Below, piece by piece: positions 2,078 through 59,646 of a stretch of DNA of 64,000 bases. A program made the translations under genes and the position numbers. The stretch lies in the IMG/VR virus record IMGVR_UViG_3300010340_001122; one strand, written 5' to 3'. Under the pieces are notes generated by a model, which saw nothing but the letters and a program-made list of their open reading frames with translations, had not been told where the DNA came from and made no database searches. The stretch comes from a virus (Duplodnaviria > Caudoviricetes). The first letter of the stretch is position 1. Each line of letters starts with the position of its first letter.

Positions 2078-2188
2078 AAAATATAATTTTTATTATATAT
2101 ATATAAATTATATTCTCCTCTTTTATTATTTTATATAATCACCACATAAATCTATTAAGGGTGGGAATATAATTTTTATATATACTAA

Positions 2189-3244
2189 ATGACAAAAGAA
2201 GATTTTTTATTAAGAGCACGAGAATCACATGGATATAAATATAATTATCCTAATTTAAATGATAAAATATTATCTAATGATGATATTGATATTGAATATA
2301 ATGGTATCATATATAGACAAAAAGTAGTTAAACATATATTATTAGGAAGATGTCCTGAGAAAAATACACCAAGTAAAACAACTGAACAATTTATATCAGA
2401 GGCTAAATTAATATGGTTTGATAAATACGACTATTCTTTAGTAGAATATAAAGGAGCTTTGAAAAAAGTTAAAATAATCTATAAAGGAATTGTTTTTGAA
2501 CAAGTTGCTGTTTCACATTTAAATGGTCAATGTTGTGAAAAGAGTCTTAATCAAGAAAACTTTATTTTAAAATCTAAAGAAAAACATGGTAACCGATATG
2601 ATTATAGTTTAGTAAAATTTAAAAATGGTAATTTTCCAGTATTAATTGGATATAAAGGAATTTATTATCTACAAAAACCATATTATCATCTTTCTGGAAA
2701 TAGACCAGAAAACATAAAATTGGCTGTTAGAAAAACCAATAAACAATTTATTAATGAGTCAAATCAAGTACATGATTTTAAGTATAATTATGATAAACTA
2801 GATTATATTTCCAATCAAACCAAAATTATAATAACATGTCCAATACATGGTGATTTCAAACAAAGACCTCTTTCACATATCCAAGGAAATGGATGTCCAT
2901 TATGTAATGAATCAAAGGGTGAAAAAGAGATTGCTAAATTTTTAGATAAAAACAACATATTATATTATAGACAACATAAATTTCATGATTGTCGTAATGT
3001 ATTTGAATTACCATTTGATTTTTATCTACCTAAATATAGATTTGTAATAGAATTTGATGGAATTCAACATTATGAGCCTATTGAACACTTTGGAGGATTG
3101 AAAGCATATGAATCATTAAAAACCAATGATAAAATTAAAAATGATTATTGTGAGGATAATTATATTGATTTGATTCGTATTAGATATGATCAGATTGATA
3201 GGATATTTGATATTTTGAAAGAAAGTCTTAAAAATAAGATTTAG
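2189..3244 (+). CDS. putative free-standing homing endonuclease (KYDYS repeats plus C-terminal PD-(D/E)XK/Vsr-like domain)
   Basis: Four FI..(A/S)...H..KY(D/N)Y repeats; CPIHG..GCPLC; LPFDFYLP..IEFDGIQHY. Confidence 0.75.
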   Translation: MTKEDFLLRARESHGYKYNYPNLNDKILSNDDIDIEYNGIIYRQKVVKHILLGRCPEKNTPSKTTEQFISEAKLIWFDKYDYSLVEYKGALKKVKIIYKGIVFEQVAVSHLNGQCCEKSLNQENFILKSKEKHGNRYDYSLVKFKNGNFPVLIGYKGIYYLQKPYYHLSGNRPENIKLAVRKTNKQFINESNQVHDFKYNYDKLDYISNQTKIIITCPIHGDFKQRPLSHIQGNGCPLCNESKGEKEIAKFLDKNNILYYRQHKFHDCRNVFELPFDFYLPKYRFVIEFDGIQHYEPIEHFGGLKAYESLKTNDKIKNDYCEDNYIDLIRIRYDQIDRIFDILKESLKNKI

Positions 3245-3945
3245 TCCTTATATGTTATATGAATTTGAATTTGCCAAGCAGTTGGTATAAGTTCTGTGCT
3301 TTTAATATCTATTAGATCTATTTCCTGATTTAGGTGTGATTTAAGAGTTTCGATGCATTGATTAAACTTTATTTCAGAATCTTTATCTAAATAGATTTCC
3401 TCTTGGCCTTTTTTACCTATTTCGGGATTCCAGTGTTCGTTCATAATACTTATTTGTAAGCATTTAGTATGATCCACATTTGCGAGTTCTCCGACTTGAC
3501 CTTTGATATTATCCCAAATATATACTGACATCCATCCATGAAATTTAGGAATTTGTATTCCGGGATTAAAAAACATGGACATTGAGTAGTCACTTAAAAA
3601 ATCCTGGAATACTTCTTTACATATTTCTTCAATTTTGATATCTGTTTCGGTTTTAATATATGAATCAAAATCTCGACTTTCATTTAAATCATTTAATACT
3701 TTATTTAAATTTTCTAAATTGAATCCTTCAAGTGGAGTTCCACCATTTTTTAAATAATTAAAATATAAATCTTGATATTCATCATAAGTTACAATTCTTC
3801 CAAATATATCTGAGTAAATAACATCGGTTATTCCGATTTTTTTCATAGGTGCATTATCTTCTTCACCATAATTAGGACCCATGTGTCCTACTAATTCAGT
3901 TCCAGATATAGATTCTAAGAAGTTTAAATATTTTTTAATCTTCAT
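3241..3945 (-). CDS. hypothetical protein with N-terminal tag (MKIKKYLNFLES)
   Basis: 234 aa ORF; shared N-terminal motif; internal LNE-S. Confidence 0.7.
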   Translation of the reverse strand: MKIKKYLNFLESISGTELVGHMGPNYGEEDNAPMKKIGITDVIYSDIFGRIVTYDEYQDLYFNYLKNGGTPLEGFNLENLNKVLNDLNESRDFDSYIKTETDIKIEEICKEVFQDFLSDYSMSMFFNPGIQIPKFHGWMSVYIWDNIKGQVGELANVDHTKCLQISIMNEHWNPEIGKKGQEEIYLDKDSEIKFNQCIETLKSHLNQEIDLIDIKSTELIPTAWQIQIHITYKD

Positions 3946-4393
3946 TTCTTACTGGTATTTTTTCAAAAAACTCGTCTTCTATTTCTAATGAATAAGTATC
4001 TTTATTAAAATCATAAAATATATTATAAAGAAAATTATCTTTTAAATCAATTTTCTCACCATTTTTTAGTTCTAGAATACAAATTTCATTTTCATAGTCA
4101 TTATAAATAGAGTGTATTTGTATTCCTATTTTACCATTTCTATCAATTAAGTTACAAATAACTTTTTTTTCATTCTGAATAAGATCATTTAATCTCTCAA
4201 AAGTTGATTGTCTGGAAAGCATTGTATAGTCTTGAATATCACTATCACTAATATTGTTATATTTTCCTAAAAAATCTTCTTCTTTTGAGCTCAGTTTCGT
4301 ACTCTTAGAAATCTTATCTAAGATTTTATTTAACTCAATCTCTTTTAGAGATTCAGTTATTCTAAGGTATGATATGAACTTTTTGAACCCCAT
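3935..4393 (-). CDS. hypothetical protein with tag-like N-terminus and DUF6576-like segment
   Basis: MGFKKFISYLRITES; LNKILDKISK...LS.KEEDFL; start could be 4402. Confidence 0.65.
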   Translation of the reverse strand: MGFKKFISYLRITESLKEIELNKILDKISKSTKLSSKEEDFLGKYNNISDSDIQDYTMLSRQSTFERLNDLIQNEKKVICNLIDRNGKIGIQIHSIYNDYENEICILELKNGEKIDLKDNFLYNIFYDFNKDTYSLEIEDEFFEKIPVRNED

Positions 4394-4483
4394 AATCACC
4401 ATATCTAATTTTAATATTTTACAATATATATATTAAGAAATCAATCTATTATTTATATATACTTTGTAAATTAAAGTTATTTG

Positions 4484-9523: not shown

Positions 9524-9541
9524 TTTTACTATATAACCATT

Positions 9542-9973: not shown

Positions 9974-10016
9974 ACAAAGAACTCAAATCTTTTTATAAAT
10001 AAAAACTATAAATAGT

Positions 10017-12008: not shown

Positions 12009-12020
12009 TAATATATATTA
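12009..12020. promoter_or_regulatory. palindromic late-promoter-like element serving a divergent gene pair
   Basis: TAATATATATTA is a perfect palindrome in the 31-bp gap between starts at 11992(-) and 12024(+). Confidence 0.6.
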
Positions 12021-14107: not shown

Positions 14108-14122
14108 ATACTATATATAAAT

Positions 14123-14759: not shown

Positions 14760-14804
14760 CTTCTTTTTCTTAATTTTTTATAATGTATATATTAATGTTT
14801 AAAA

Positions 14805-17408: not shown

Positions 17409-19517
17409 TTAATTATTATTTTTAAACGGATTATTCCAAGGATTGGATAATACATCATTTTTGTATCTATTTTGAAGCTTCTTTCTCCTTATATCTAAAA
17501 CTTGAGTGTAATCTACACCTTCTGTATATTCTATTCCGTCTAATGTTGCTCTTATATAGTTCAACATTTCAGAATCAGGTAAAGATTCTGAAAATTCCTC
17601 AACCATTTGTCTAAAATCATTTTTTTGAAATATTGCACACATATCTATTATACTCATAACTGTATCATCATGTGATGATCCATCCGCAGCATATCTTACA
17701 TTACCTGCGGCTGTTGTATGTTTTATAAATGTTGTCATTTCCGAAATATTTATATCATTTGTTATTATTATAGATCTTTCTTCCATTTTATCTTGATACT
17801 CTTTAACCAATAGGTTTTTATTTTCACCAACTTTAAGTCCTATTTTTTCATCAAGTGCATCTGCGCGATGTTTGAATCTAAAAAATATTGATGATCCATA
17901 ATCATTTCTACCATCAAATACATGAGGCATATGAGCTAGTAGTTCATTTCCATAAGTATTGATCTCTAAAACTATTTTAACATTGTCTGGGTTGAAATAT
18001 TCAAATGATATTAAATATAGAATTTCAGCTAGTTGTTGTACAGATACTAAATTACTTCTAAACATACCTACCTGTTCCAATTTGAAAAAATCAACAATTG
18101 ATTTATATTTATGTTTTTGGTGTTCTATTAATTCTTTTGTTTTAACATTTAATTTAAATATATTAATTATTGAATAATCCTGTCCTAATCCTTCTGATAC
18201 ATCCACAGATATTATTATTTTATAATCTTTTCTTTTTAGTGGTAAAAATATATCATCGTCTTGAATCCATTTCATATCTTGATACGAAAATTTCAATTTT
18301 TCAAGTTCATCAAGTTTTTCCCACTCATATATTTTTTTATTTTTAGTTAAATCATCGATGAGAGTTTCGGTTAATAAACTTCTTGAAGAATTTATAAATC
18401 TTAAATCATATTCCTGGTTAAATGCTTCTTCACCGCCAATATCCTTAATAGTTTCTTTTTTCCAAGTCGTTATTTCTGAAAACTCTAATAGTCTTATTCC
18501 ATTAAATGATTCGGATAAAATATCTTCTTCAGAACAGTCTATTGTATTTAGTGTTGTAATTACCCATTTTTTTAACTCATCATTATATGATAAGGTGTGT
18601 TCATTTTTTGGATATTTTTCAATTAAATAATCGAGTAATTCATTTTTGTTTATTTTATTTTCTTCTACTTTTTTTGGATTTAGTCTAATATAAGTAGAGA
18701 ATCTTTTAGGAACTTGCCACCAATATACTCTTTTTGCGACATATGATGATTTTTCTCCCTCTGGTTTTTCAGCATCTGTTAATAATTTGTGAAAAAGGTT
18801 AAACCCATCAGGAGTTGATGTTATGATTATTTTTGAATTATCTATATTAGATACTGTCGGAAATACTGATTTGTAGAATTTATCAGCTATATTTCCTGGT
18901 AGATATGCAAACTCATCTAAGTATAAAAAATCAGCAGCCTGCCCAATAGATGCAGTTTTAGTTGTTGCGAATCCTTTTATTCTACTTTTATTTTCAAAAA
19001 CCATAAATTTTTGATTCCAGTTTATAATTCCCTGTTGTAAAAAGAAAGGCAGTTTTTGATATATTTCCCTTATTTTATCTAACACCTCAATTGCTGTATC
19101 TAATTTATTTGCTGTTACTAATACATTTTTATTATTATTAAATAAAACATAATGTAGCATCATAATTGATGAGCAGATGGTTTTACCTATTTGACGACTT
19201 GCCATCAATATATTAAATCTATTATTAAAGAAATTATCTAGTATTTCATTTTGATAGTCTCTAAGTGGTATTATAATTGGTTGTCCTTCTTCGCCTTTGA
19301 TATAACAATAGGTTCTTGCGAAATAATGAATATCTAAAGCACATTTTATATATTCTTCTTGTTCATCATTTGACATCTTAAATGTTAGACCAGCAGTTCT
19401 TAGACCCACTACTTTTTCAAAAAATGGATTTTCTAGTCTATTTAAAACAAAACCATTGTTTATTTTTTCAGTAGCTTCTTCTACCATTTTTGTTGTCCAA
19501 ATTATTTGTCTTGACAT
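17409..19517 (-). CDS. gp17: terminase large subunit
   Basis: LRDYQ, SRQIGKT, LYLDEFA, IITSTPDG, FNQEY, VDVSEGLGQDYS, LEINTYG, SHDDTVMS. Confidence 0.95.
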   Translation of the reverse strand: MSRQIIWTTKMVEEATEKINNGFVLNRLENPFFEKVVGLRTAGLTFKMSNDEQEEYIKCALDIHYFARTYCYIKGEEGQPIIIPLRDYQNEILDNFFNNRFNILMASRQIGKTICSSIMMLHYVLFNNNKNVLVTANKLDTAIEVLDKIREIYQKLPFFLQQGIINWNQKFMVFENKSRIKGFATTKTASIGQAADFLYLDEFAYLPGNIADKFYKSVFPTVSNIDNSKIIITSTPDGFNLFHKLLTDAEKPEGEKSSYVAKRVYWWQVPKRFSTYIRLNPKKVEENKINKNELLDYLIEKYPKNEHTLSYNDELKKWVITTLNTIDCSEEDILSESFNGIRLLEFSEITTWKKETIKDIGGEEAFNQEYDLRFINSSRSLLTETLIDDLTKNKKIYEWEKLDELEKLKFSYQDMKWIQDDDIFLPLKRKDYKIIISVDVSEGLGQDYSIINIFKLNVKTKELIEHQKHKYKSIVDFFKLEQVGMFRSNLVSVQQLAEILYLISFEYFNPDNVKIVLEINTYGNELLAHMPHVFDGRNDYGSSIFFRFKHRADALDEKIGLKVGENKNLLVKEYQDKMEERSIIITNDINISEMTTFIKHTTAAGNVRYAADGSSHDDTVMSIIDMCAIFQKNDFRQMVEEFSESLPDSEMLNYIRATLDGIEYTEGVDYTQVLDIRRKKLQNRYKNDVLSNPWNNPFKNNN

Positions 19518-19576
19518 ATCTTAAAAAATTTTTAAAAAATCCACAAAGGAATATTTTTAGTATATATAGTAATATT

Positions 19577-20185
19577 ATGGGTACAATGTCAAAAAGTGAA
19601 AAAGAACACACTAGAATAAATGATGAATTTGATATGATTCAAGAAGAAAATATAGATTTTGATATAGCTGGGCATTTAGCTACTATTGATGATCTTCCTG
19701 ATTTGGGTCAAATTGAATTATATGATTATGATTCAGACTTAACTGTTGCATCTCAAAAAGGAATGGATGTAATTGAATCTCTTGTTGATCTATATTTGGG
19801 AGAATTTGGTGATTTAAAGAGTCATCCTTATATAAAAAATAAACTCAGAGAAGATGCTATGGTATATGCTGAAACTTTATTTTTATCTAAAATGACTAGA
19901 AAAAACTTTTTAACTCAGATGAGACAAGTTGATAATGGTGATAATTCTGCAAGAATGCATGAAGTTATAAATCAAACAATACGAGAAGTTAGAGAAAATT
20001 CTAAGTTCTCATCTTCACAGAGGACAGAATTAGAGGAATATTATAAAAAATTTAGAGAAGATTTAGGTGAAGTTGCCGCAGCTATGAAACTATCAAATCC
20101 TGATAAAGAAGAGGATGGTCAAATTGTTGATAATAAGAAGTTAAATGATATGATAAGTGAGGCAATGAAAAAGAAAAAATCTTAA
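19577..20185 (+). CDS. gp16: putative terminase small subunit
   Basis: NSARMHEVINQTIREVRENSK resembles the T4-type PR(A/M)YEV helix; divergent from TerL. Confidence 0.55.
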   Translation: MGTMSKSEKEHTRINDEFDMIQEENIDFDIAGHLATIDDLPDLGQIELYDYDSDLTVASQKGMDVIESLVDLYLGEFGDLKSHPYIKNKLREDAMVYAETLFLSKMTRKNFLTQMRQVDNGDNSARMHEVINQTIREVRENSKFSSSQRTELEEYYKKFREDLGEVAAAMKLSNPDKEEDGQIVDNKKLNDMISEAMKKKKS

Positions 20186-21027: not shown

Positions 21028-21039
21028 AAACTATATATT

Positions 21040-21837: not shown

Positions 21838-21915
21838 ATTGTTAATTTAAACTTGAGGTATATATTCAGGTCGGAATATTACTAAATATACTAAGTGGAT
21901 TTTTTCAGTAAAAAT

Positions 21916-21951: not shown

Positions 21952-22329
21952 TTATTTATTCAAATTGTCAAGAAATTCTTTTTCTTTTTTAGAAAGTGAG
22001 TCAATTCCTTTTTCAGAAATTTTTTCTAGAATAACATCAACATCCAAAGACATTTTTGTATCTGTTTTGAATGATAATGATGACATATTTTTTAGAAAAT
22101 CTTTGAAATTATCTTGAAATATTATTTCTTTTTTTGAAGATTCATGCACATAAGCAACAGCCTCAAAAGTATTCTTATCGAAGAATATTTTTGTATATCC
22201 AGATTCTTTGTGTTCAAAGAGTTTATTGGCGTCTATATTTTCTATGCCGTTATCATCAAGAAGTCTTTGAAAGTCTTCAACCGATTTGAATCTATTCAAG
22301 TGAATTGATATTACGTTTTCGAATTTCAT
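21952..22329 (-). CDS. hypothetical protein with C-terminal DUF6576-like motif
   Basis: VDVILEKISEKGIDSLSKKEKEFLD; TATATTTG box upstream (22350-22357, minus strand). Confidence 0.7.
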   Translation of the reverse strand: MKFENVISIHLNRFKSVEDFQRLLDDNGIENIDANKLFEHKESGYTKIFFDKNTFEAVAYVHESSKKEIIFQDNFKDFLKNMSSLSFKTDTKMSLDVDVILEKISEKGIDSLSKKEKEFLDNLNK

Positions 22330-25383: not shown

Positions 25384-25407
25384 AATTATATAATTAATAT
25401 ATAGACT

Positions 25408-26028
25408 ATGAAATATTTGAAAAAGTATATTCTTTTTTTAGAGGATATTGAAAATATAGTAACAGATGATATTAGTGCATTACCATCAGATCCAGAATTA
25501 GACTCAAAGACTGATAAAACAAAATCTGAGTCTTTATCAGACTCACAAGCACTTTTAAGAGAATTTCAAGATAAAAAGAGTAAAATAGAGAGTATTTTTA
25601 AGGATCCAAAAATAACTGATGATGTTTCACTTGATAATGCCTTATTAAATGGTGTTTATAATAGTAAAAGGGAAGTTAAAGATAGAAATAAATGGATTAA
25701 AGAGTTTGAATCAATTCTTCGAGCAGAAAGAAGAAAGAATGCTCTTCAATCAGCTATAGGTAGTGATGAGGATCAAGTTAAAAAAACTAACGATGATATA
25801 AATCGATTAAATAATGAGATATTAAATGCTTCTGACAAAAGAAAAGATCAGATTGTTTCATCTCTAGAAATGAATAAAAAAAGACTTAAAGAAATTAAAG
25901 ATAATATTCTTTTGAATAAGAAACTACTTTCAGAAGATATAACTAATTGGAATAAAAATCTTGAGAATTTTAAAAAGTCTATTAAAATTGAGGAAGAAAG
26001 AATAAAGAATTTACTGTCTAAAGTATAG
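25408..26028 (+). CDS. coiled-coil hypothetical protein with N-terminal tag
   Basis: MKYLKKYILFLED; ATATATA-GACT-ATG. Confidence 0.75.
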   Translation: MKYLKKYILFLEDIENIVTDDISALPSDPELDSKTDKTKSESLSDSQALLREFQDKKSKIESIFKDPKITDDVSLDNALLNGVYNSKREVKDRNKWIKEFESILRAERRKNALQSAIGSDEDQVKKTNDDINRLNNEILNASDKRKDQIVSSLEMNKKRLKEIKDNILLNKKLLSEDITNWNKNLENFKKSIKIEEERIKNLLSKV

Positions 26029-26094
26029 AAATAGAAAAAAAATGGTTTTTCCTTTTAATATATAAAACATAAAATAAAAAATAATTAAAAAAAT

Positions 26095-30352: not shown

Positions 30353-30402
30353 ATTAAACAAAGATAGGTGTATTTAATATATATGTAAAAAGGTATGTTA
30401 TT

Positions 30403-32118: not shown

Positions 32119-32390
32119 AATACTCACCATTTGTATCCTCAAGTATAATTGTATTTGAATTACAATTATCTTTATTATTGAATAAAATACCTTTTTTAGT
32201 GTCTAAAAACTTAAATGTGTCCATATATGGATATTCGTCAAACTTCCAATGGTCTAACTTTATTTTTAGATCATGTTTAACTTCACTTTTCCATAAGTTC
32301 TTAAATCCTTTTCCAACACACTAAAGATTGATACCATTTAAGTTTTTTGTTTCCAAAAGTCTCTACTATAATAGTCTCTGATAATATCAT
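32105..32390 (-). pseudogene. chimeric remnant: endonuclease-like 5' stub joined out of frame to the 3' part of another gene
   Basis: ATG at 32390 gives MILSETIIVETFGNKKLKWYQSL then an early stop; another frame reads CVGKG...YPYMDTFKFL...LEDTNGEYFTWW to TAA at 32105 with no start at its 5' end. Confidence 0.6.
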
Positions 32391-32441
32391 ATACTTATAT
32401 ATTGTATTCTTTAATCCTTCTAACGTCTTTAAGATATTTTA

Positions 32442-32690
32442 CTATTTGAATTTATTTACCATACTATTCATATTATTCATGTAAGAACTTGGATTAAAGT
32501 TAGGCATCGATTTTTGTTGTGAATCTTCTTCTTGCTTTCTTTGCTTTTCTTCATCTTCATTTAGTTCATTAACTATTTTAATATTTTCTTCTAACATCCA
32601 AAATGGCCATTCATCAATACAAAATTCATTTATATGATAATGTTTTTGTAAAAGAAGCTTATTCTTTAATAAAGGCTTCAAAGGCATCAT
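32442..32690 (-). CDS. gp51: baseplate hub assembly protein, gp51-like
   Basis: LLLQKHYHINEFCIDEWPFWMLEENIKIVNELNEDE; overlaps the 3' end of the gp26-like gene. Confidence 0.6.
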   Translation of the reverse strand: MMPLKPLLKNKLLLQKHYHINEFCIDEWPFWMLEENIKIVNELNEDEEKQRKQEEDSQQKSMPNFNPSSYMNNMNSMVNKFK

Positions 32691-33600: not shown

Positions 33601-33797
33601 ATTTTGTGTTATTTTTTAGGTATATATAGTTATAGTTTAACTACCCATTATTGTTTTTTTAAAATATTGATAAATGGTAAAAAGTTGTTTTTATTTATCA
33701 ATATATATATAGAAAATAATTGTAATACAGGTATTAATAAATTAAATATATAATTTATAATTGCTTAGACAATTAAATAAAAAATAAAAAAAAGACT

Positions 33798-36496: not shown

Positions 36497-36581
36497 AATT
36501 TTATATTTAAAAGTAAATATACTAAAAATAATAAGTATATTTACAAAAAATTATAATCGTTTTCTTTTTAATATATAATCA

Positions 36582-39817: not shown

Positions 39818-39827
39818 AATTTATATA

Positions 39828-40604
39828 TTAATTGTAGAATGGTAATAAAATTTGATGATATCCTTCGTGATTATATGATGGTAATAATATTGCACAATCA
39901 AAATAGGATCCTAATCTTTTCATAAAATCAGTATTTTTTGTAAGTTTTCTTTTCATCCATGGCTTTTCAAAACTTGGAATCTTTATTATAACCGAATTAG
40001 ATTCATATGAGGCGATGGATGTTGTATTAATAATTTTAGAAGCTTTTGACATATACTCTTCATCTAAATCTTCGAAATCTGCTTGTAGTGCATCTAAAAT
40101 AAAATCTTTGTCCGTTTCGTTAAATTTTATTTTATTTGGTATTTCCCAAATAGTTCCTGTAATCATTTTTTTAACTTCTTGTCCTACATATATGTAGGAT
40201 AAATGAATATATTCTTGAGTATATAATTTGAAACGATTTTCTTTTTTATAAACATCTGTATAGTTTAAATAGTCATAATTAAATATAAATTTTTCAAGTT
40301 CTTTTCTATATCGATAACTATTTCGGCCTTCTAAAAAATAATTAGACCAATTAACATATTCGTTGCATATAAAGGTTATATCACCATCTTTTGATGAGTA
40401 TTCCAGTTCATCGATAAATTCGAATATTTCTTTCATCTTTAAAAATGTACCATAAGAAAACTCTAGATTGATACCACTTCTCGTTAATTTATTAGAATCT
40501 TTGAGAAGTGTGTATAAGTAATTAGAATAATATTTTAATTTATCAATTATTTCTGATTTAGATTGAACTCCTTCAAATATTTTATATGGTTTTAAATGTT
40601 TCAC
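39828..40604 (-). CDS. hypothetical protein with N-terminal tag (GTG start)
   Basis: MKHLKPYKIFEG; ATATATA-AATA-GTG. Confidence 0.75.
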   Translation of the reverse strand: MKHLKPYKIFEGVQSKSEIIDKLKYYSNYLYTLLKDSNKLTRSGINLEFSYGTFLKMKEIFEFIDELEYSSKDGDITFICNEYVNWSNYFLEGRNSYRYRKELEKFIFNYDYLNYTDVYKKENRFKLYTQEYIHLSYIYVGQEVKKMITGTIWEIPNKIKFNETDKDFILDALQADFEDLDEEYMSKASKIINTTSIASYESNSVIIKIPSFEKPWMKRKLTKNTDFMKRLGSYFDCAILLPSYNHEGYHQILLPFYN

Positions 40605-40607: not shown

Positions 40608-41945
40608 TTATATATAAAAATAATCTGGATAATTATCTGACTTTAATCTATATCTCATTATTTGTCTATCTATACCAGAACCTTCAACCGCCTTTGAAAT
40701 CGATTCATATTCCTTACCTAAAATTGACACACTTTTTGTTTTTGGTAATCCAGTTTCTTTTAATTCAACTTCTTTATTTAAATAAAACCACTCCGGGTAG
40801 GATTTTGAGTTTAATCTCCAATTAATATAATCATTTGATTTATTTAAATATTTTGCAGCTTCCGTAATAGATTCATATATAATACCACCTATTGATATTC
40901 TTTCTTTTTTTGATAAATATGGATCAATATTTTCATATTTTTTACACTTTTTATTTAATTCTTCATCTTGAAAAAGATAATTTTTGAAATGTGATGATTT
41001 TAGTCTTGAACGAATTAAAGACCTATCAATATTTAGTTTTTTTACTGCATCAGATATTGATTCATATTTAATATCGTCAATTATTATTTTTAATTTTGTT
41101 GCTTGTTCGAATTTTTTTCTATTCTTTTTTAGACTAATTTTAATCTCTAATTTTAACTTATCACCAATATGTTCATAATATTCTTTTCTATTTTTGAAAT
41201 ATTTATTTGGTATAAATTTTAAGTAAGAAGTCAGTCCTTCTATATTTTTATTTTCTATGTGGGTTTCTATCTTATTAAATTCTTCATCTTCTCTAATTTT
41301 TAACTTTCCAAAAATGAACCTCAATTCGTGACCAAAAAAATCATAAAATCCATTTGCATTTTTTAGAAAATTATGTGAAGATCTCTTTTTAATTATTTTT
41401 AACTCGTCTATGAATTCATATATTTTACCGATATCAATTTGGTCCTTTATAAATTGGCATCTTTTTTTAAGATTTTCATTATAATCTTTCCATTTTTGTT
41501 CATTTTTAATTATTGCTTTTGATGATAAGATACTTTTATGTATATGTGGTTTTAATTTATTTTTATAATCCTTTGCTTTTTCCTCACCGAAAGCTTCCTC
41601 ATATGTCTTTCCTTTTTTTGGATTATTTTTTGATATTTTTTCTTTTATTATTTCTAAATCTGGATGATTGGATAGTGTATCACCGCCATCCCCACCCGGC
41701 GATATATTATATCCAATTTTTTTATCTATCGAATTATAGAATGATATCCAATAAATCTCTTTTTTGGATAACTCATTATAGTCATCAGTTGTGTCTATAA
41801 TTTCTTTAATGAAGTTTTCACTACCATATTTTTTTAAGGCTCGCTTAATTAGTAATCCTGATCCAAAATATTTAGGATCAGATGTTGTGTCTTTTCCTAT
41901 ATAAATTTTATTGTTTATTAGGTTGGTAACTTTATAAATTTGCAT
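40608..41945 (-). CDS. GIY-YIG (Seg-like) homing endonuclease with three C-terminal NUMOD1-like repeats
   Basis: QIYKVTNLINNKIYIGK..YFGSG..GYNISPGGDGG; three I.I....YESI..A......R.RL.S..YP repeats. Confidence 0.88.
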   Translation of the reverse strand: MQIYKVTNLINNKIYIGKDTTSDPKYFGSGLLIKRALKKYGSENFIKEIIDTTDDYNELSKKEIYWISFYNSIDKKIGYNISPGGDGGDTLSNHPDLEIIKEKISKNNPKKGKTYEEAFGEEKAKDYKNKLKPHIHKSILSSKAIIKNEQKWKDYNENLKKRCQFIKDQIDIGKIYEFIDELKIIKKRSSHNFLKNANGFYDFFGHELRFIFGKLKIREDEEFNKIETHIENKNIEGLTSYLKFIPNKYFKNRKEYYEHIGDKLKLEIKISLKKNRKKFEQATKLKIIIDDIKYESISDAVKKLNIDRSLIRSRLKSSHFKNYLFQDEELNKKCKKYENIDPYLSKKERISIGGIIYESITEAAKYLNKSNDYINWRLNSKSYPEWFYLNKEVELKETGLPKTKSVSILGKEYESISKAVEGSGIDRQIMRYRLKSDNYPDYFYI

Positions 41946-41997
41946 AATGATAATTTTTATTTACCATTATATATTAAATATTTTACCTTCCTTTAGA

Positions 41998-42578: not shown

Positions 42579-42662
42579 AATATTTTAAATTTTTATTATA
42601 TATTAATTCTTCATCAAGAATTAAAGTTTTTATATATATTCAAAATAGTATTTGATTAGTAG

Positions 42663-49672: not shown

Positions 49673-49691
49673 ATTGGTATATATTTAAAAA

Positions 49692-50663
49692 TTACTTTTC
49701 AATTAGAATATCTCTAAACTTACCAATTATTGTCATTCCTAAAATAATTGGATCTGTATTTGTTTCGAGTTTGGATGAATATGCTGATAATATATAATTT
49801 AATTCAAATAATTTATCAATATTTTCTCTTTTCTCTTGAATTGACCAGTCTACAAAATTTTTACCTAATAATCTAATGATAATATCTATTTTATCAGGTC
49901 CAAAATTCGACATTAGAAAATGATATATTTTTTCATAGTCTTGGCTCTTATCATATAATATATTATATAAATCTAATTTTAATTTATTAGATACATTAGA
50001 TTGTATTGAATATAATTCACCAGTATCTTTAAAATTTTGTAATTCAACAAACATTCCTCTAAAGTCTGGAAATTTTTTATTGATAATATTTACTAAATCA
50101 TCTTTTGAAATATTTATTTCCTCTTTTGGTGATACAACATTTGTAATTTTTTTATAAAATTCTTGTTTTAGTAATTTTTCTTCTTGTGAATTTTGACAAT
50201 CAAAATCTATAGAAGTAAATCTTGACTTTATACCATCTGAAATTTTATTAATATGGTTTGTTGTTAGTATAAATCGAACATTTTTATGATATGTTTCAAT
50301 AAATGCTTTTAATGCATCTTGATATTGTGAAGAAACTCTTTCAAATTCATCTAAAAAAATATATTTTATAGGATCTTCTGTTTCTAGTATAGGTTGAGTT
50401 TTGCAAAATTTTTCAACTTCACTTCTTAGCACATCTATTGATGTATATAATGAACTATTTATTTCTAAAAAAGCTTTATCCTTTGAGTATCTACCAATTA
50501 ATATTCTCGCTAGTGATGTTTTGCCTGTCCCATAATGTCCATAGAAAATATAGTTTTTATTTATACCATTTTCAAAATATGATTTTATTCTTGGTAATAA
50601 TATTATATCATCTATATTTTTTGGTCTATATTTTTCCCAGAGTAGTGAATTTTTAATTGACAT
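49692..50663 (-). CDS. gp44: sliding clamp loader AAA+ subunit
   Basis: LWEKYRPK.IDDIIL, GHYGTGKTS, FLDEFE, IKSRF, FPDFR. Confidence 0.9.
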   Translation of the reverse strand: MSIKNSLLWEKYRPKNIDDIILLPRIKSYFENGINKNYIFYGHYGTGKTSLARILIGRYSKDKAFLEINSSLYTSIDVLRSEVEKFCKTQPILETEDPIKYIFLDEFERVSSQYQDALKAFIETYHKNVRFILTTNHINKISDGIKSRFTSIDFDCQNSQEEKLLKQEFYKKITNVVSPKEEINISKDDLVNIINKKFPDFRGMFVELQNFKDTGELYSIQSNVSNKLKLDLYNILYDKSQDYEKIYHFLMSNFGPDKIDIIIRLLGKNFVDWSIQEKRENIDKLFELNYILSAYSSKLETNTDPIILGMTIIGKFRDILIEK

Positions 50664-50693
50664 TGAAAACAAATTATTTTTATATATACTCTC

Positions 50694-51731
50694 ATGATAG
50701 GACAAAAGTTTAATTTTGATGAAGTTTTCTTTAGAGATTTAACAATATGTGTATTGGACACATTAGAGGGTAGATTAAATTGGATAAACCATTTTACAAG
50801 TGGTGATTTAAATGTACAAGTTCCTATTTATTATTCATTAACTGGTGATGAAAGATTTTTATTAGATTCATTTCAAGATGATATAGTTTCTGAAAATAGA
50901 CATGTTGAATTAAATACAGATCAGATACCTAGAGGACATTTAACCTTTAATAATTTTACTATAAGGAGTGATGAGTTTAGAAATCCTAATGTTTGGCTTA
51001 GATCTGTTGTTGAAGACAACATTGAAGTTAAAAAACTTCTTAGACAGGTTCGGGCAATTCCGATAACTGTCACATATGATTTAGTAATTTTATTAAAAAG
51101 TGAAATTGATGTTTTTAAATGTGCTCAAGAAATAATGAATACACTTTGGTTATATAGATTTATGTATTTTGAACATAATTATATGAATATTGATGCTGTT
51201 CTTACTATGCCTGATACTGATACTATCGAGATAATAAGAGAAAAAAATTTAAAAAGTGATAATACTGTTAAATTAACATTGTCACTTGAAGTTCAAACGT
51301 ATTATCCAGCATTTACTAGTAATAAAGATTGTAAAATTGAAACAATTGGAACATCAGTTTGTTCAGTCGGTCAAATTAATACAAATGTTGTTAAAGTTGG
51401 TCCTGTTTTTTCAAAAAGTTGTATAGGGTCAAATAAAAAAACATCATCAATATCTGAAATTGGAGTTGGGAACCAATTAATTGGTAATGGTATTCCGAAT
51501 GGGGTTTATGTTACTTCAATAAATGTCGTGGATTCAGAAGTAACAATTAGTAAAAATATTGAGTGTAACATTATTAATAATACCATTTCTTTTTTACAAA
51601 ATCCAGGTGATGTTGTTTATCCATATAGAACTAGATGGTTTAATAACTTACAACCAATTTCTATGAGAAATGCTTCAAGTAGTAATCCTAATTCTGGATC
51701 TTCAAATTTAGATGATAATTCAGTTTTATAA
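50694..51731 (+). CDS. gp15: tail sheath terminator/completion protein, gp15-like, with C-terminal extra domain
   Basis: VQVPIYYS..ERFL, IPRG, RAIPITVTYDL.I, EI..T, L.LEVQTYYP. Confidence 0.65.
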   Translation: MIGQKFNFDEVFFRDLTICVLDTLEGRLNWINHFTSGDLNVQVPIYYSLTGDERFLLDSFQDDIVSENRHVELNTDQIPRGHLTFNNFTIRSDEFRNPNVWLRSVVEDNIEVKKLLRQVRAIPITVTYDLVILLKSEIDVFKCAQEIMNTLWLYRFMYFEHNYMNIDAVLTMPDTDTIEIIREKNLKSDNTVKLTLSLEVQTYYPAFTSNKDCKIETIGTSVCSVGQINTNVVKVGPVFSKSCIGSNKKTSSISEIGVGNQLIGNGIPNGVYVTSINVVDSEVTISKNIECNIINNTISFLQNPGDVVYPYRTRWFNNLQPISMRNASSSNPNSGSSNLDDNSVL

Positions 51732-51803
51732 AAATTGAAAATGAAAAAAATAGACTTTTTAATTGTAATATATAGTTTATATAAAAAAATAAATACAAAA
51801 AGT

Positions 51804-53087: not shown

Positions 53088-53110
53088 TATTTTTCATAAT
53101 AAAAATAAAA

Positions 53111-53153
53111 ATAAAAATGAAAAAAGACGAATTAATTCGTCTTTTTTCATTTT
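53111..53153 (+). terminator. long inverted repeat/terminator
   Basis: AAAATGAAAAAAGACGAATT/AATTCGTCTTTTTTCATTTT. Confidence 0.75.
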
Positions 53154-53210
53154 ATACATATAATAAATATAGCATTAAAGGGCTTAGTGTCCTAAAAAAT
53201 AAATGCTAGA

Positions 53211-53576
53211 ATGTATCTTAATAATAAAGATTTGTATGTTGAAATGATTGTATCAAAAGCTCAAGGTCGATTGACTATAAAAGCTGAAAAAATGTTAGAA
53301 CTATTGGCTAAAGAAACCATTAAAAAAATGAGATATTGGTCAAATGATGATAAGAATGATTGTTACCAATCTGGTATTTTAGATATGTTCCAGAATTGGT
53401 ATAATTTTAATGAAGAAAAATCAGTAAATGCTTTTGCTTATTTCACAGAAGTCTTTAAAAGAGGAATTGCCAAAGGATTTAATGAACTATATAAAAAAAA
53501 GGGAGATAATGATAATTTGATAAAAGTTATTTCCATTGAAGGATCAAATGATGGTCAAGGATTACACAGTTTATAA
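53211..53576 (+). CDS. gp55: late transcription sigma factor, gp55-like
   Basis: YLNNKDL, WYNFNEEKSVNAFAYFTEV matches the gp55 pattern YVNNK..NFDPEKS.NPFAYFTQI. Confidence 0.8.
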   Translation: MYLNNKDLYVEMIVSKAQGRLTIKAEKMLELLAKETIKKMRYWSNDDKNDCYQSGILDMFQNWYNFNEEKSVNAFAYFTEVFKRGIAKGFNELYKKKGDNDNLIKVISIEGSNDGQGLHSL

Positions 53577-53592
53577 TTATTTAAAATAAAGT

Positions 53593-54660: not shown

Positions 54661-54706
54661 TCCATTAAACTTTTTGATGGAATATTATAATATAAATAAA
54701 AATAAT

Positions 54707-55012
54707 ATGAATAAATGTATTTTCCAGTTTTGGGAAGAATCTGAGAGAGGATGGGGAATCCGTCCAGATGGATGTTCAATTCATTTAAATAAAGAAGAGT
54801 TAAATGCTTATATACAAAATATCTATAAAAATAGATTAGATGAAGTTCCTGATGAATACGATAGAATAGTTGGTTTACCAGTAGAATGTTTTATATCGGA
54901 TCAATTGTATGATAAGCTAAATCAATCTGGATATTTAAGATTATTTGAGTTTGAGAAAAATAATTTAATCTTAATGGAGGAGATTTTTTTTAAACCAAAT
55001 GAAGTTTTTTAG
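54707..55012 (+). CDS. hypothetical protein
   Basis: QFWEESERGWGIRPDGCSIH; start could be 54677. Confidence 0.7.
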   Translation: MNKCIFQFWEESERGWGIRPDGCSIHLNKEELNAYIQNIYKNRLDEVPDEYDRIVGLPVECFISDQLYDKLNQSGYLRLFEFEKNNLILMEEIFFKPNEVF

Positions 55013-55313
55013 TCTACTATTTATTTTATCTACAATATACTATCTATTTAATCGTAAACATTTACTATTAAAAATTGATAATAGAACTTATAGATCAAAA
55101 TCTAAAGTATTTTTTGATATAATTTACTACTTTACTGATATTTTATACCTAATTTGGATAGTAATAATGATGTTTTATAATATTAAAATGTCTTTATTAT
55201 TAATATTATTAATTATTTTTAGATGGATTTTTTTAAATCCTTTTAAAAATAAACAAGACATGACTTATATTGTTTTAAAATTAATGATTTTATTTTCTAT
55301 TATTATAGGTTAA
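54999..55313 (+). CDS. small integral membrane protein
   Basis: Three or four hydrophobic segments. Confidence 0.65.
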   Translation: MKFFSLLFILSTIYYLFNRKHLLLKIDNRTYRSKSKVFFDIIYYFTDILYLIWIVIMMFYNIKMSLLLILLIIFRWIFLNPFKNKQDMTYIVLKLMILFSIIIG

Positions 55314-55836
55314 ATCTTTTTAGATGATCTTCTGTTATAACAATAAACTCCCATCCTTTTTTATCACAAAATTTAATCATGGTGTTCCATTTATCTCTAT
55401 TTTTCTGAGCCATTTTTAAATCATACTCAAAGTTTTTTAATTTTTTTACAGTTGCTGATGATTTTGGAATTTCTAATTTTTTTTCTTGTAGTGCGATTAC
55501 CATTTCGAATTCTTTTTTAGGTTTTACCTCAGCAACCACTTTTTTGACCATTCCGTCATTTAATTTCATTTCGTAGTAGAAGTCTGGATAATAACTATGG
55601 CTTTTAACTTTTATATCACCATTATCAAAATGAGTCATTTGATACGGTATTGTTATACATTCAGCACCCCATTTAGAAACTTTTTCACTATTATCTAACC
55701 AAGTCATTATTTTTAATTCCCAGGAGCTTCTATAATAAACTCCTCCTTGTGAGTTTAATTTTAGAACTTTATCTTTATTTTTGGGGATGAAATTACCTTG
55801 ATGATAATTTTTATTTTTAGGCACACTGTTTAACAT
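55303..55836 (-). CDS. gp4: head completion nuclease (TnsA-like)
   Basis: YRSSWE, W.AE...IPY, YYPDF, EVKP, KW...C.K.GWEF.VITE. Confidence 0.88.
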   Translation of the reverse strand: MLNSVPKNKNYHQGNFIPKNKDKVLKLNSQGGVYYRSSWELKIMTWLDNSEKVSKWGAECITIPYQMTHFDNGDIKVKSHSYYPDFYYEMKLNDGMVKKVVAEVKPKKEFEMVIALQEKKLEIPKSSATVKKLKNFEYDLKMAQKNRDKWNTMIKFCDKKGWEFIVITEDHLKRFNL

Positions 55837-55853
55837 ATTAATATATATCTTAT

Positions 55854-56549
55854 ATGGGTGCTTTGCAAGAAAGAATAGAATTAAATAAAAAAGTTTTTGG
55901 AACAGATATAGTAGATTTCTATAAGAATAATACTTTATTTATGTATGATAAATATTCAAAAACTGATGAAATGTGTGATGCTATTTCAATTTCTGAAATA
56001 TCTGTTGGTAATTTTTACTTTTTTCACTATCACGATCCATCTAATTGGATGAAATATTCTCCAATTTTTTGTGTAGATTATAGAAAAGTTAAGGATATGA
56101 TAATTATTTTAGGATTAAATTTTAATTTTATACCTCTAGAAATTAGAGGGACTATTTTTGATAAGTTTATATCTGAACAAGATTTTGAAAATAATTCATC
56201 ATTAGAAGTTGATTTCACTGGAGTTTATACTGAGTTATTAAAATATGGATTCGAATATGCTATAGTTGAATATAATGCTATACAAATTAGCTTAGTGCAT
56301 AAAATAAATTTAGAACTACTACCTAGATTTTTATATTCATCTCATCCGAAAAATAAATATGATCCGAAAAAATTAATGGAGATTTGGACTACTAAGTTGA
56401 AAACAAGAGAAAAACGTCATCAAGAAATGACATTATCTATTCTTAGTGAATTTTATGATGTTACCTCAGAAATATCTAATAAATATGATGCCTTAATTGG
56501 ACACATACAGAGATTGCAAGATAGTTTTAATAAATTTAAAAATAAATAA
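55854..56549 (+). CDS. gp2: DNA end protector-like protein
   Basis: GNFYFFHY.D....YSPIF.V....LGLNFNFIP..IR. Confidence 0.6.
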   Translation: MGALQERIELNKKVFGTDIVDFYKNNTLFMYDKYSKTDEMCDAISISEISVGNFYFFHYHDPSNWMKYSPIFCVDYRKVKDMIIILGLNFNFIPLEIRGTIFDKFISEQDFENNSSLEVDFTGVYTELLKYGFEYAIVEYNAIQISLVHKINLELLPRFLYSSHPKNKYDPKKLMEIWTTKLKTREKRHQEMTLSILSEFYDVTSEISNKYDALIGHIQRLQDSFNKFKNK

Positions 56550-56579
56550 TAATATATAAATAAAATTTATTCTGTAAGT

Positions 56580-56927
56580 ATGAAGCATTTAAAAAAATTT
56601 GAGGATCTTGAATATAAAGATTTATTGGCACAACAATCTAAACTAAGAGATGAGATGGAAAAATCTCGATTAGAAGAAGAGAAAAGAAGAAGAAGTGAAC
56701 TCTCTGGTAATCACTTATCTAAATTATCATCGGATATTGAAAAAAATAAACAATTAAATAAAAATCAGGAAGAACGTCAAGAATTAACACATTTAGTTGT
56801 TCAGTCCTTGATATACTCTGAGCAAAATAAAGATGGATTTGATAATTTTAAAAATGATTTAAAACAATTATTAAATAATTATTCTTTAGATAAACTTCCT
56901 AGAAGTGGGTCTTCAATTTATAGGTAA
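56580..56927 (+). CDS. hypothetical protein with N-terminal tag
   Basis: MKHLKKFED. Confidence 0.75.
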   Translation: MKHLKKFEDLEYKDLLAQQSKLRDEMEKSRLEEEKRRRSELSGNHLSKLSSDIEKNKQLNKNQEERQELTHLVVQSLIYSEQNKDGFDNFKNDLKQLLNNYSLDKLPRSGSSIYR

Positions 56928-56978
56928 TTTTGAGGGAAATGGTCTATTTAATATATACCTAAAAATTTTTAAAATTTA

Positions 56979-58703
56979 ATGGCATCAACCTATAATCCTT
57001 TAAATCAAACTAGTAATGTTCAATCAATGAATAGTGCTGTTGAAAATAGAGGTCTTTTTAGCAGAATACTTAGAAATTTATCTTCATGGGGTATGAATTA
57101 TGATGATATGATCATGAGAAACCAAGTCGGAGTTGGTATTAATGAAGATCCATATTCACAACAGGGCAATTCTATGTATGATTTCTTTTCAAGAAGAGCA
57201 GTAGCATCTGTTTTAAATAGAAAATCAATACCTTATTTAGATAGATCCTATGCAGATAAGAGAAGAATATTGAGAGAATATTCTATAAAAGATGAAATTA
57301 GAGATTTTGTTTCTAGCGTTTGTGATGAAGCGGTTATTTATTCTGATAAAGATTTTTGTAAACCTAAAAATATATCTACTGATTATTCACAAGATATTAG
57401 AGATAAATACCAAGAATATTTTGAAACAATTTATAATAGATATGGATTTTCAGATTCAGTTTCAGCTTGGAATTTAATGAAAGATTTCCTTATCGATGGG
57501 TATGTTGCTATGGAAATTGTCTGGGATGATAAAAAGAAAAATATTATACATTTTAATAGATTAAGACCCGAGACACTTCTTCCAGCTTTTGAACCTTCTA
57601 TTGGACATCTTTGGATTCAATATCCAGAAGATCCTCAACTTAGAAGAATATTTCTAGATTCACAATTAATATTCATTTCATATTCAACTCAAAATGATTA
57701 TTCCGAGACTTCTTATGTTGAAGGATTGATTAAGCCTTATAATCAAATGAAGATTATAGAACAGACGAAAATTATGTTCAATATTATAAATGCAACAGTT
57801 TATCAGAAATTTACAATTCCGGTAAAGGGTCTTTCAAGACAAAAGGCAGAAGAACAAATAGGACAATTAATAAATGATTATTCGGAAGAAGTTGAGTGGG
57901 ATGATTCATTAGGTACTTTACAAATAAATGGTACTAAACACTTACCATATAATAAACAAATCTGGTTTCCAGAAGGTGATGCTGGTACTCCTAATATGGA
58001 GTTGATATCACCACAAGGACATAATTTAAATGAAGATGATATTTTAAAATGGTTTTATAATATTTTAAAAAGAGCTTCTAAAATTCCTGTTCAAAGATTT
58101 GAAGGTGATAATGGCGGTGGTAATGTTTTTACAGATGCTGCTGAGATGACTAGAGATGAAGCTAAATTTTCTAATTTTATTAATAGATTGAGAGCTAATT
58201 TTAAAGAACTAATAGTTAAACCACTTAAATTACAAATGTTGGTTGAGTTTCCAGAACTTAAAGATGATGAGATTGCATTAAATCAAATTGATATTGATTT
58301 TATATCAAATCAATTATTTGAGGAGTGGAAAAAACTTGGAAATATGTCTAAAAAAATTGAAATTCTTGGATCATATACTGGAATACAAAAAGCTGATGGT
58401 ACTCCATATTTTCATATTGAATATTTGATAGATAATGTTTTAAAACTAACAGCAGAGGAGAAAGAAGAAAATAAAAGATATTGGATTAATGATTCTGCTG
58501 GTGGTGGATCTTCTGAGGCTACTCCGGGAGATGGTATCTCAGATGCTGGTGCGGGTGGTGCTGGAGGAGATTTTGGAGGTGGTGCTGAAATGGGTGCTCA
58601 ATCTACTACTGAATCCCCAACTCCTGAAACTCCAGCTCCTGATGCAGGTGGATCAGATTCTTCGCCAGACACTGGTGGTGAAAGTTCAGAATTTGAATTC
58701 TAA
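56979..58703 (+). CDS. gp20: portal protein
   Basis: VCDEAV, IDG, IKPYNQMKIIE, KAEE, ASKIP..RF, MTRDEAKF..FI.RLR..F. Confidence 0.92.
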   Translation: MASTYNPLNQTSNVQSMNSAVENRGLFSRILRNLSSWGMNYDDMIMRNQVGVGINEDPYSQQGNSMYDFFSRRAVASVLNRKSIPYLDRSYADKRRILREYSIKDEIRDFVSSVCDEAVIYSDKDFCKPKNISTDYSQDIRDKYQEYFETIYNRYGFSDSVSAWNLMKDFLIDGYVAMEIVWDDKKKNIIHFNRLRPETLLPAFEPSIGHLWIQYPEDPQLRRIFLDSQLIFISYSTQNDYSETSYVEGLIKPYNQMKIIEQTKIMFNIINATVYQKFTIPVKGLSRQKAEEQIGQLINDYSEEVEWDDSLGTLQINGTKHLPYNKQIWFPEGDAGTPNMELISPQGHNLNEDDILKWFYNILKRASKIPVQRFEGDNGGGNVFTDAAEMTRDEAKFSNFINRLRANFKELIVKPLKLQMLVEFPELKDDEIALNQIDIDFISNQLFEEWKKLGNMSKKIEILGSYTGIQKADGTPYFHIEYLIDNVLKLTAEEKEENKRYWINDSAGGGSSEATPGDGISDAGAGGAGGDFGGGAEMGAQSTTESPTPETPAPDAGGSDSSPDTGGESSEFEF

Positions 58704-59140
58704 GCGGATAGTTTAGACTTACTACAAGCTTGAAATCCATTTATTTCATAATAATTATAAGAATGTAATATTACTACTCTAAAATCTATTGTATGACCAA
58801 TTTCTAATAAATTTAATAGTATTTTACCATTTGGTGTTTCTAATATATTTATATCTAAATTGATCTTAATTACATTAAGATCTTTATCAACTACAAATGA
58901 CATTGAGTTAATAGAAAATGTTGAATCTTTTAATCTGAATGAATATTCATCTGAGGATACCGTATCTAATCCACATATTAATGGTGGATTCATATTAGTA
59001 ATATCGAATTGTGATTTATTACCTAATAGAGAATTTATTTTTATTTCTCTATAAAAAGATTTATAATCTCTATATTTTTCTAAAATGTTTTTAAAACATT
59101 CAAGATTGTGAAAATTTTCTAATTTAACATCAACTATCAT
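58700..59140 (-). CDS. hypothetical protein
   Basis: 146 aa ORF coupled to the upstream gene's stop. Confidence 0.65.
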   Translation of the reverse strand: MIVDVKLENFHNLECFKNILEKYRDYKSFYREIKINSLLGNKSQFDITNMNPPLICGLDTVSSDEYSFRLKDSTFSINSMSFVVDKDLNVIKINLDINILETPNGKILLNLLEIGHTIDFRVVILHSYNYYEINGFQACSKSKLSA

Positions 59141-59494
59141 ATACTTTTTTCTTTTCAGAAATAGTTTGTTTCATTTTTTTAAAAATTTTCTTATTTTGAA
59201 TTGGATATTCACATCCATAATTCTTTTGTAATGTTTCTTTTCTTTTAGATTCTGAGCATTTTCTACAATAATATATGCCCCAGTTATTGCCATATTTTAT
59301 ATAGTTTTTATAGATTACATCTTTTTTAATACCACATCCATCACATTCACATTGTATTTTATGATGAGATCCTTTTGATAATAGTTCAGTTGGGATTATT
59401 AATTCATCACCAATAGAAATGTCATATCCTAAATTTTCAAAATATGAAAATTGGATTCAATTATTTTAATTTTAATTTCTCTAGTAAGAATCAT
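59130..59494 (-). pseudogene. frameshifted Zn-ribbon protein (endonuclease-associated N-terminal module with no nuclease domain)
   Basis: MILTREIKIKIIESNF then, in the -1 frame, SYFENLGYD..GSHHKIQCECDGCG..YYCRKC..KNYGCEYP..VYDS to TGA at 59130. Confidence 0.7.
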
Positions 59495-59646
59495 AAAAAA
59501 CCGTTAATTTTTATTTATATATCTAAATTTTCATGTCTCTGTGACGTTTTAATATCATTGAGTTTTATTTATTCTGTAAAAAATCCACCTTTAATTTTTT
59601 TAGGTTTTTTTAAGTTGATATATAACTAAAATAAAAGGTAAATTTC

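Follow-up and report, generated by a model that had tools for sequence, protein, structure and literature searches.

A probable gp55-type late promoter at two discrete distances from start codons in a megaphage lineage, with predicted leaderless transcripts

Leaderless transcription is known from phages: lambda cI is expressed leaderless from PRM, and the Thermus phage phiYS40 reportedly produces leaderless middle and late mRNAs. Here we scrutinized a heptamer, ATATATA, that recurs ahead of genes in a 64,000-nucleotide (nt) stretch of DNA (the window) from the virus record IMGVR_UViG_3300010340_001122 (Duplodnaviria; Caudoviricetes) and that probably forms the core of a late promoter. The closest described element is the late promoter of phage T4, TATAAATA, read by gp55 acting with gp33 and the gp45 sliding clamp. 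It occupies -13 to -6, lacks a -35 element and begins with A, at -13, in nine of fifty sites (PMC2988020). As in T4, the box is 8 bp long, all A/T, placed as a -10 element without a -35 and accompanied by an encoded gp55-family factor, and it precedes virion and homing endonuclease genes on both strands; the A often found at its first position is tolerated in T4. Unlike T4, the fifth base is T rather than A, the predicted start in the lineage of the window is one base nearer to the box, and the gp55 homologue, at 121 aa, lacks the C-terminal third. Furthermore, T4 late mRNAs carry Shine-Dalgarno leaders, whereas ~40 to 45% of the units described here adjoin the start codon.

The window (GC ~27%) encodes a virion set comprising a T4-type portal, prohead protease/scaffold, gp23-type capsid, large terminase, tail sheath, head closure, and baseplate wedge. 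Its nearest public relatives are the uncultured 635 to 735 kb phages LR745206, LR756502, LR756504, and LR756501/3. The Prevotella Lak phages come next, and all belong to a clade named Mahaphage with Bacteroidota as predicted hosts (PMC7162821). LR745206, at 635 kb, is the closest complete relative, and genome-wide counts refer to the whole of it (942 open reading frames, ORFs); 390 kb of LR756501, 100 kb of Lak-A1, and 50 kb each of the cultured Bacteroidota phages Tenacibaculum pT24 and Chryseobacterium MA9V-1 were sampled. Lak megaphages likewise encode a gp55 homologue (40% identity) and have a late-type box of the -10-only kind; they also have host-type TAnnTTTG promoters, which recur in Lak-A1 as TGTATCTTTG before many small genes. 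However, the Lak-A1 box is (A/T)ATAAATA, as in T4, located 12 to 45 nt (mostly 22 to 33 nt) before starts with no short-spaced class, and Lak-A1 reads TAG as sense, upon which its coding density rises from ~0.6 to ~0.83.

Two cellular promoter types also bear on the layout. The '-10 region adjacent to ORF' promoters of Deinococcus-Thermus place a -10 element a few fixed bases before the start, with +1 on the A of AUG, and their expression depends on the -10-to-start distance (PMC12340547). Our short-spaced units would share this geometry, but the predicted host phylum uses few leaderless mRNAs, the element appears to be gp55-type rather than a sigma-A -10 hexamer, and the same orthologous gene would alternate between leaderless and leadered forms among relatives. 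Primary-sigma promoters of Bacteroidota combine TTTG at -33 with TAnnTTTG at -12 to -5, in which T-12, A-11, T-8, T-7, T-6, and G-5 are nearly invariant, and mapped promoters of Flavobacterium johnsoniae place this -7 element at -12 to -5, with 4 to 5 nt to the start (PMC6847099). The box likewise would end at -5, with 4 to 5 nt to the start, and host-type promoters occur in LR745206 with both of its spacings; in contrast, the box differs at T-12, T-7, and G-5 and marks a distinct gene set. Leaderless phage mRNAs, designs with a -10 next to the ORF (PMC12340547), and gp55 promoters are thus already known, while no prior description of megaphage leaderless mRNAs, an ATATATA late promoter, or Lak phage promoters was found in the searchable literature. 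What is new, as read from the genomes, is the apparent combination of a one-base variant box with a two-state layout across a megaphage lineage in a leaderless-poor host phylum.

In the window as a whole, ATATATA was not enriched (74 copies versus 66.6 +/- 11.9 expected from dinucleotide shuffles). Within 60 nt upstream of starts, however, it was the top 7-mer, preceding 31 of 69 genes (the runner-up reached 20), in agreement with the original prediction of some 30 genes, and 42% of all copies fell in these regions, which make up 2.9% of sequence space. The positional enrichment over an AT-matched background that the prediction had called for was marked. Against a null of 1000 dinucleotide shuffles of the upstream regions themselves, the 31 genes compared with 5.2 +/- 2.0 expected (shuffle maximum 13); the box ended 4 to 6 nt before the start in 12 genes versus 0.36 expected (maximum 4), and 18 to 26 nt before it in 16 genes versus 1.1 expected (maximum 8). 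None of the 31 box-bearing genes in the window had it ending at 7 to 15 nt. Although the raw count was unenriched, this null rules out chance or AT-richness as the cause of box placement. An ORF-calling artefact was also rejected; an A or G following the box often completes its TA to an in-frame stop, yet this cannot generate an ATG at a fixed offset. The extended consensus was T-T-(A/T)-ATATATA, and no position upstream of the TT flank reached 0.5 bit, leaving no -35-like partner.

Three longest-ORF TTG starts in the window, at 19490, 49692-50705 (minus strand), and 51735, are probably wrong; alignments of orthologues and box positions favoured ATG at 19586, 50663, and 51804, respectively, and correction yielded three further box sites. 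Eleven of the twelve sites originally listed at 4 to 6 nt were exact. At the twelfth (32390) the box is present, but the ATG after it opens only a 29-aa ORF, a doubtful gene, and one site (55836, minus strand, 5 nt) had been omitted. The short-spaced sites are:

2178-2184, plus strand: box 4 nt before ATG 2189 of an HNH homing endonuclease gene (2189-3244); the LR745206 orthologue also has a 4-nt spacer, of other bases
12011-12018, both strands: palindromic core, 6 nt before ATG 12024 (plus) and 19 nt before ATG 11992 (minus)
14112-14118, minus strand: box 4 nt before ATG 14107, immediately past a hairpin and T-run; the orthologue has a 5-nt spacer and a different hairpin
21032-21038, minus strand: box 4 nt before ATG 21027, immediately past a hairpin and T-run
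25397-25403, plus strand: box 4 nt before ATG 25408, past a hairpin and T-run
32396-32402, minus strand: box 5 nt before ATG 32390, the doubtful 29-aa ORF
36571-36577, plus strand: box 4 nt before ATG 36582
39822-39828, minus strand: box 4 nt before ATG 39817
40609-40615, minus strand: box 4 nt before GTG 40604
49678-49684, minus strand: box 5 nt before ATG 49672 of a baseplate wedge-like protein gene
50681-50688, both strands: shared core, 5 nt before ATG 50694 (plus) and 17 nt before the corrected start 50663 (minus)
55841-55848, both strands: shared core in a 17-bp gap (55837-55853), 5 nt before ATG 55836 (minus, head closure) and 6 nt before ATG 55854 (plus)

The original prediction had each gene carry a ~15-bp expression unit, with the start site on or next to the initiation codon. 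The short spacing is real, but covers only ~40 to 45% of box-bearing genes, and the remainder would have leaders of ~12 to 25 nt. The sites of this leadered class are:

2094-2105, minus strand: AT run, box 16 to 20 nt before ATG 2077 of a UvsX-like recombinase gene; orthologue spacer 22 nt
4427-4433, minus strand: box 22 to 24 nt before ATG 4402; orthologue spacer 21 nt
4455-4461, plus strand: box 19 nt before TTG 4481 or 22 nt before ATG 4484 of a 1680-aa virion protein gene
14786-14792, minus strand: box 26 nt before ATG 14759
19561-19568, both strands: shared core, 17 nt before the corrected start 19586 (plus) and 43 nt before ATG 19517 (minus, large terminase)
21859-21865, minus strand: box 21 nt before ATG 21837
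26058-26064, plus strand: box 30 nt before ATG 26095 of the tail sheath gene (1402 aa); orthologue spacer 28 nt
30377-30383, plus strand: box 19 nt before ATG 30403
33621-33627, minus strand: box 20 nt before ATG 33600
41968-41974, minus strand: box 22 nt before ATG 41945 of an endonuclease gene with I-TevI-type DNA-binding domains (40608-41945)
42597-42603, minus strand: box 18 nt before ATG 42578
42632-42638, plus strand: box 24 nt before ATG 42663 of a 2209-aa protein gene
51768-51774, plus strand: box 29 nt before the corrected start ATG 51804
56552-56558, plus strand: box 21 nt before ATG 56580
56951-56957, plus strand: box 21 nt before ATG 56979 of the T4-type portal gene; orthologue spacer 19 nt
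59618-59624, plus strand: box 22 nt before ATG 59647 of the prohead protease/scaffold gene

The box-bearing genes of the window hence include those for the portal, sheath, protease, head closure, baseplate wedge, and homing endonucleases, while genes encoding the gp55 homologue, a GDP-mannose dehydratase, and SbcD were without it, as was the capsid gene at 61835, downstream of the 59647 gene. The core of the box is close to a palindrome, which allows a single copy to serve divergent genes on either side.

The same two-state layout recurred in relatives. In LR745206, 247 of the 942 ORFs had a box within 80 nt upstream, with spacers of 4 nt in 58 genes, 5 nt in 29, 6 nt in 6, 7 to 9 nt in 15, and 10 to 15 nt in 4, followed by a hump at 16 to 32 nt (mode 21). 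The box was strongly oriented; among 133 copies of TTAATATATA, 100 lay 3 to 7 or 16 to 35 nt before a same-strand start versus 20 in reverse orientation. The 93 short-spaced genes fell into 87 unrelated BLAST clusters, hence the 4- to 5-nt peak does not stem from duplication, and its swelling by paralogues was ruled out. In orthologous pairs of the window and LR745206 the box was retained while flanks, spacer bases, and upstream hairpins diverged, and orthologue N-termini aligned from residue 1. For the head-closure gene (55303-55836), orthologues at 53 distinct IMG/VR loci all had the box, ending 4 to 6 nt before the start in 32, 18 to 22 nt in 21 and 7 to 17 nt in none. Its divergent neighbour displayed the same two-state spacing across related loci, and the intergenic gap in the 53 loci clustered at 16 to 19, 30 to 33, or 43 to 48 bp around one shared palindromic core.

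The short-spaced class was lineage-specific: it was found in the window, LR745206, LR756504, and LR756501, and was not seen in the sampled parts of LR756500 and Lak-A1. In the samples of pT24 and MA9V-1, both of which encode a gp55 homologue, neither the box nor the short spacing occurred, hence neither phage offers an easy experimental stand-in. A terminator-like hairpin lay directly upstream of 12% of short-spaced sites versus 4.6% of box-less genes; the enrichment is modest only, and an upstream terminator was rejected as a general feature of these sites.

Sequence around the boxes bears on where transcription starts. In the leadered class, an A stood 5 nt past the box at 87/106 sites in LR745206 and 15/18 in the window, the offset that the A of ATG has in units with a 4-nt spacer. 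Short-spaced sites had T immediately before the ATG in 44/58 and 19/29 cases, giving a pyrimidine(-1)/purine(+1) context. LR756501 had 26 genes with a short spacing of 5 nt and no gene with 4 nt (Fisher p=1e-10 versus LR745206); five intervening bases are also the T4 spacing. Its 77 leadered units had the conserved A at +6/+7 (92% and 90%) versus 71% at +5; spacing and conserved A thus shift together between lineages. Spacers that would give leaders of ~2 to 11 nt were scarce, as would be predicted if a message needs either an AUG at its very 5' end or a leader of sufficient length for initiation to proceed normally. In short-spaced units +1 most likely falls on the A of ATG, to which four lines of sequence evidence point independently: the conserved A, its shift between lineages, the geometry shared with host-type promoters, and the two spacings at the 53 head-closure loci. 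The conserved A, the one-base shift between lineages, and the empty 7- to 17-nt gap also favour the earlier proposal of a start site on or next to the initiation codon. Strict T4 geometry, with the start 6 nt after the box, conflicts with the conserved A and would cost the main class its AUG.

A candidate reader of the box, for which a gp55 homologue had been proposed, is encoded within the window:

53211-53576, plus strand: gp55-family late sigma-like factor, 121 aa, identified by PHROG 234, profile and structure matches; proposed box reader

This ORF matched PHROG 234, 'late sigma transcription factor' (E=1.3e-7). Searched as a single sequence against the PDB it gave no match, but a profile of 41 diverse homologues matched T4 gp55 in the late-promoter open complex (7d7c_F, E=3.8e-9, residues 9-131 of 185). 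An AF2 model (pLDDT 87.5) had 7d7c_F as its best Foldseek match (TM 0.77, rmsd 1.7 A), followed by sigma region-2 domains. The homologue was kept throughout the clade, in all relatives including Lak phages. Together with a box one base off TATAAATA, ahead of virion genes and with no -35 element, these matches bear out the original identification of the factor and of a gp55-type lone -10 promoter. T4's own TATAAATA was not enriched before starts in LR745206 (22/295 copies), which points to a variant box here. A phage-encoded RNA polymerase as box reader was rejected, as no Rpb2-type polymerase domain was found in LR745206; a T7-type RNA polymerase model also found no match there, though its control was silent.

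Box-bearing genes in LR745206 were largely distinct from those with other promoters. All six of the capsid, portal, sheath, terminase, protease, and UvsX genes had a box 19 to 31 nt upstream, compared with one of ten replication, nucleotide-metabolism, and regulatory genes with a box within 35 nt (p=9e-4); the extracytoplasmic function (ECF)-like sigma was left out of this comparison because its start is uncertain. Genes without a box within this distance encode two DNA polymerase parts, ribonucleotide reductase (RNR), a DnaB-like helicase, an AAA protein, gp55, bS21, SbcD, and a clamp-loader-like AAA protein. Host-type promoters, TATATTTG(T) with a T-rich/TTTG region ~20 bp upstream, preceded box-less genes; 214 genes had the box, 68 the host-type motif, and 7 both. 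Late-type and host-type promoters showed no spatial segregation in LR745206 and were interspersed. Of the host-type TAHHTTTG sites there, 14 lay 4 nt and 7 lay 5 nt before the ATG; a gap followed, and sites resumed from 12 nt upwards. Host-type promoters thus share both spacings, and the short one is not confined to the gp55-type box. In the window, clear TAnnTTTG sites preceded 554-739 and 21952-22329 (both minus strand). Aligned by its 3' end with TAnnTTTG, the box departs from the sigma-A consensus, with A prevailing at -12 and occupying both -7 and -5.

Several further features of these genomes were recorded. LR745206 encodes a bS21 ribosomal protein at 296645-296839, a 217-aa ECF-like sigma with regions 2 and 4 at 329989-330642, and a family-B DNA polymerase split into two parts ~100 kb apart (130568-131992 and 232803-234344). 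An M[KR][YHFWIL][LIVF][KR] N-terminus occurred in 33/192 box-bearing genes of LR745206 versus 39/750 others, and an MK(Y/H)(L/I)K-type N-terminal peptide also occurs at 25408, 36582, 40604, and 51804 of the window; this is probably the 'tag' to which the original prediction referred. The ~540 bp at 32119-32658 of the window, with the box at 32396-32402 pointing inward, contain no ORF >45 aa except a 98-aa ORF that runs, in a different frame, over the end of the adjacent gene; the stretch may represent a disrupted gene, small genes, or an RNA.

From the motif with its orientation, two-state spacing, and conservation, and from the gp55 homology and virion-gene association, we infer that the gp55 homologue reads the box, that transcription starts at the positions given above, and that leaderless translation follows. 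The (A/T)ATATATA element, usually after TT, is probably a -10-only late promoter, used by host core RNA polymerase carrying the 53211-53576 factor and giving leaderless or short-leader mRNAs. Initiation would occur at a purine 5 nt past the box (four intervening bases), sometimes 6 nt. A box 4 to 6 nt from the ATG would place the mRNA 5' end at or within 1 to 2 nt of the start codon and lead to leaderless translation, while a box 17 to 30 nt away would give an A-rich leader of ~12 to 25 nt without a Shine-Dalgarno sequence, as is normal for Bacteroidota; spacings giving leaders of ~2 to 11 nt would be selected against.

Several observations weigh against this scheme. The 214 box-bearing genes were dispersed across the whole of LR745206 rather than forming one late block, and the majority had no assigned function. 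The gp55 homologue is without the ~50 residues that form the C-terminal third of T4 gp55, and its coupling to a clamp is unsupported: gp45 Pfam models found no match in LR745206, with controls that were silent or nearly so, a DnaN C-terminal domain was not found, and no gp33 turned up, though no search aimed at it was made. The ECF-like sigma of LR745206 could in principle read the box. Under strict T4 geometry, the 4-nt class would begin on the U of AUG, hence the start must be one base closer here. Finally, efficient translation of leaderless mRNA in a Bacteroidota host is assumed, and in such hosts short or absent leaders account for only 3.7 to 13% (PMC7366714, PMC9723704, PMC6847099).

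Three alternatives were considered alongside a gp55-read promoter. It is unlikely that the box is a promoter read by another factor, be it the phage ECF-like sigma or the host primary sigma, perhaps phage-modified. The 217-aa protein has both sigma regions 2 and 4, yet a region-4 sigma would be expected to use a conserved -35-like partner, and none accompanies the box. A host factor would be compatible with a box that ends at -5 like the host -7 element, with the spacings that host-type promoters share and with the truncation of the gp55 homologue relative to that of T4, but the box does not match the T-12 and G-5 that hardly vary in TAnnTTTG (PMC6847099), and only 7 genes had both motifs versus 214 and 68 with one. 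The single-base difference from the element read by T4 gp55, and the retention of the homologue across the clade, including Lak phages with their (A/T)ATAAATA box, also argue against another reader.

Less probable still is that the box is a promoter whose short sites are not leaderless, with transcription starting 6 to 7 nt downstream, inside or past the ATG, and the gene served by read-through or a downstream start codon. An ATG exactly 4 to 5 nt past the box in 87 unrelated genes cannot be incidental, and orthologous N-termini that align from residue 1 speak against downstream initiation, even though the T4 +1, six bases past the box, would be the U of AUG for 4-nt spacers (PMC2988020) and leaderless mRNAs are rare in Bacteroidota hosts (PMC7366714, PMC9723704). 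The conserved A at the same offset in leadered sites, which shifts with the short spacing between lineages, the avoidance of 7- to 17-nt spacers in the 53 orthologous loci, and the 16- to 19-bp divergent gaps, which leave no room for another promoter outside coding sequence, also disfavour it. We consider it very improbable that the box acts as RNA, either as an endoribonuclease site at which long transcripts are trimmed or as an A/U-rich translation enhancer in place of a Shine-Dalgarno sequence. Bacteroidota do lack Shine-Dalgarno pairing and rely on A/U-rich upstream sequence (PMC6847099), but an enhancer would not occupy two discrete positions 15 nt apart. Primary and processed 5' ends cannot be separated by sequence alone; however, trimming at one palindromic core between genes 16 to 19 bp apart would require transcripts that cross the gap both ways from inside opposing genes, and the resemblance to the T4 late promoter, the encoded gp55 homologue, and the terminator-like hairpins just upstream of some boxes fit a promoter better.

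If the gp55-type reading with leaderless short-spaced units holds, their share of ~40 to 45% among box-bearing units would be unusually high compared with the 3.7 to 13% of the hosts and suggests heavy leaderless translation in a phylum where such mRNAs are rare. Compact units of this kind may plausibly account for the shuffled gene order of the window, where 25 strand switches occur among 63 genes. It is possible, though less likely than not, that leaderless initiation is a genome-wide strategy of this megaphage lineage and no peculiarity of one promoter. Roughly 1 in 9 genes of LR745206 would then be leaderless (93 late-type plus ~21 host-type of 942 ORFs), phage translation genes such as bS21 may bias ribosomes towards these messages, and a self-contained promoter-plus-start unit of ~15 bp would allow genes to be inserted, inverted, and swapped freely, which could drive mosaic gene order. 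A gene that flips between leaderless and leadered states among relatives would amount to a natural experiment. With the box, genes can be placed in a probable late class and mis-called starts put right; it also gives a simple annotation rule and may help in reading metatranscriptomes. For the largest known phages (~540 to 735 kb, with predicted Bacteroidota or Prevotella hosts), it would provide a promoter grammar, with start sites predicted to the base for hundreds of genes.

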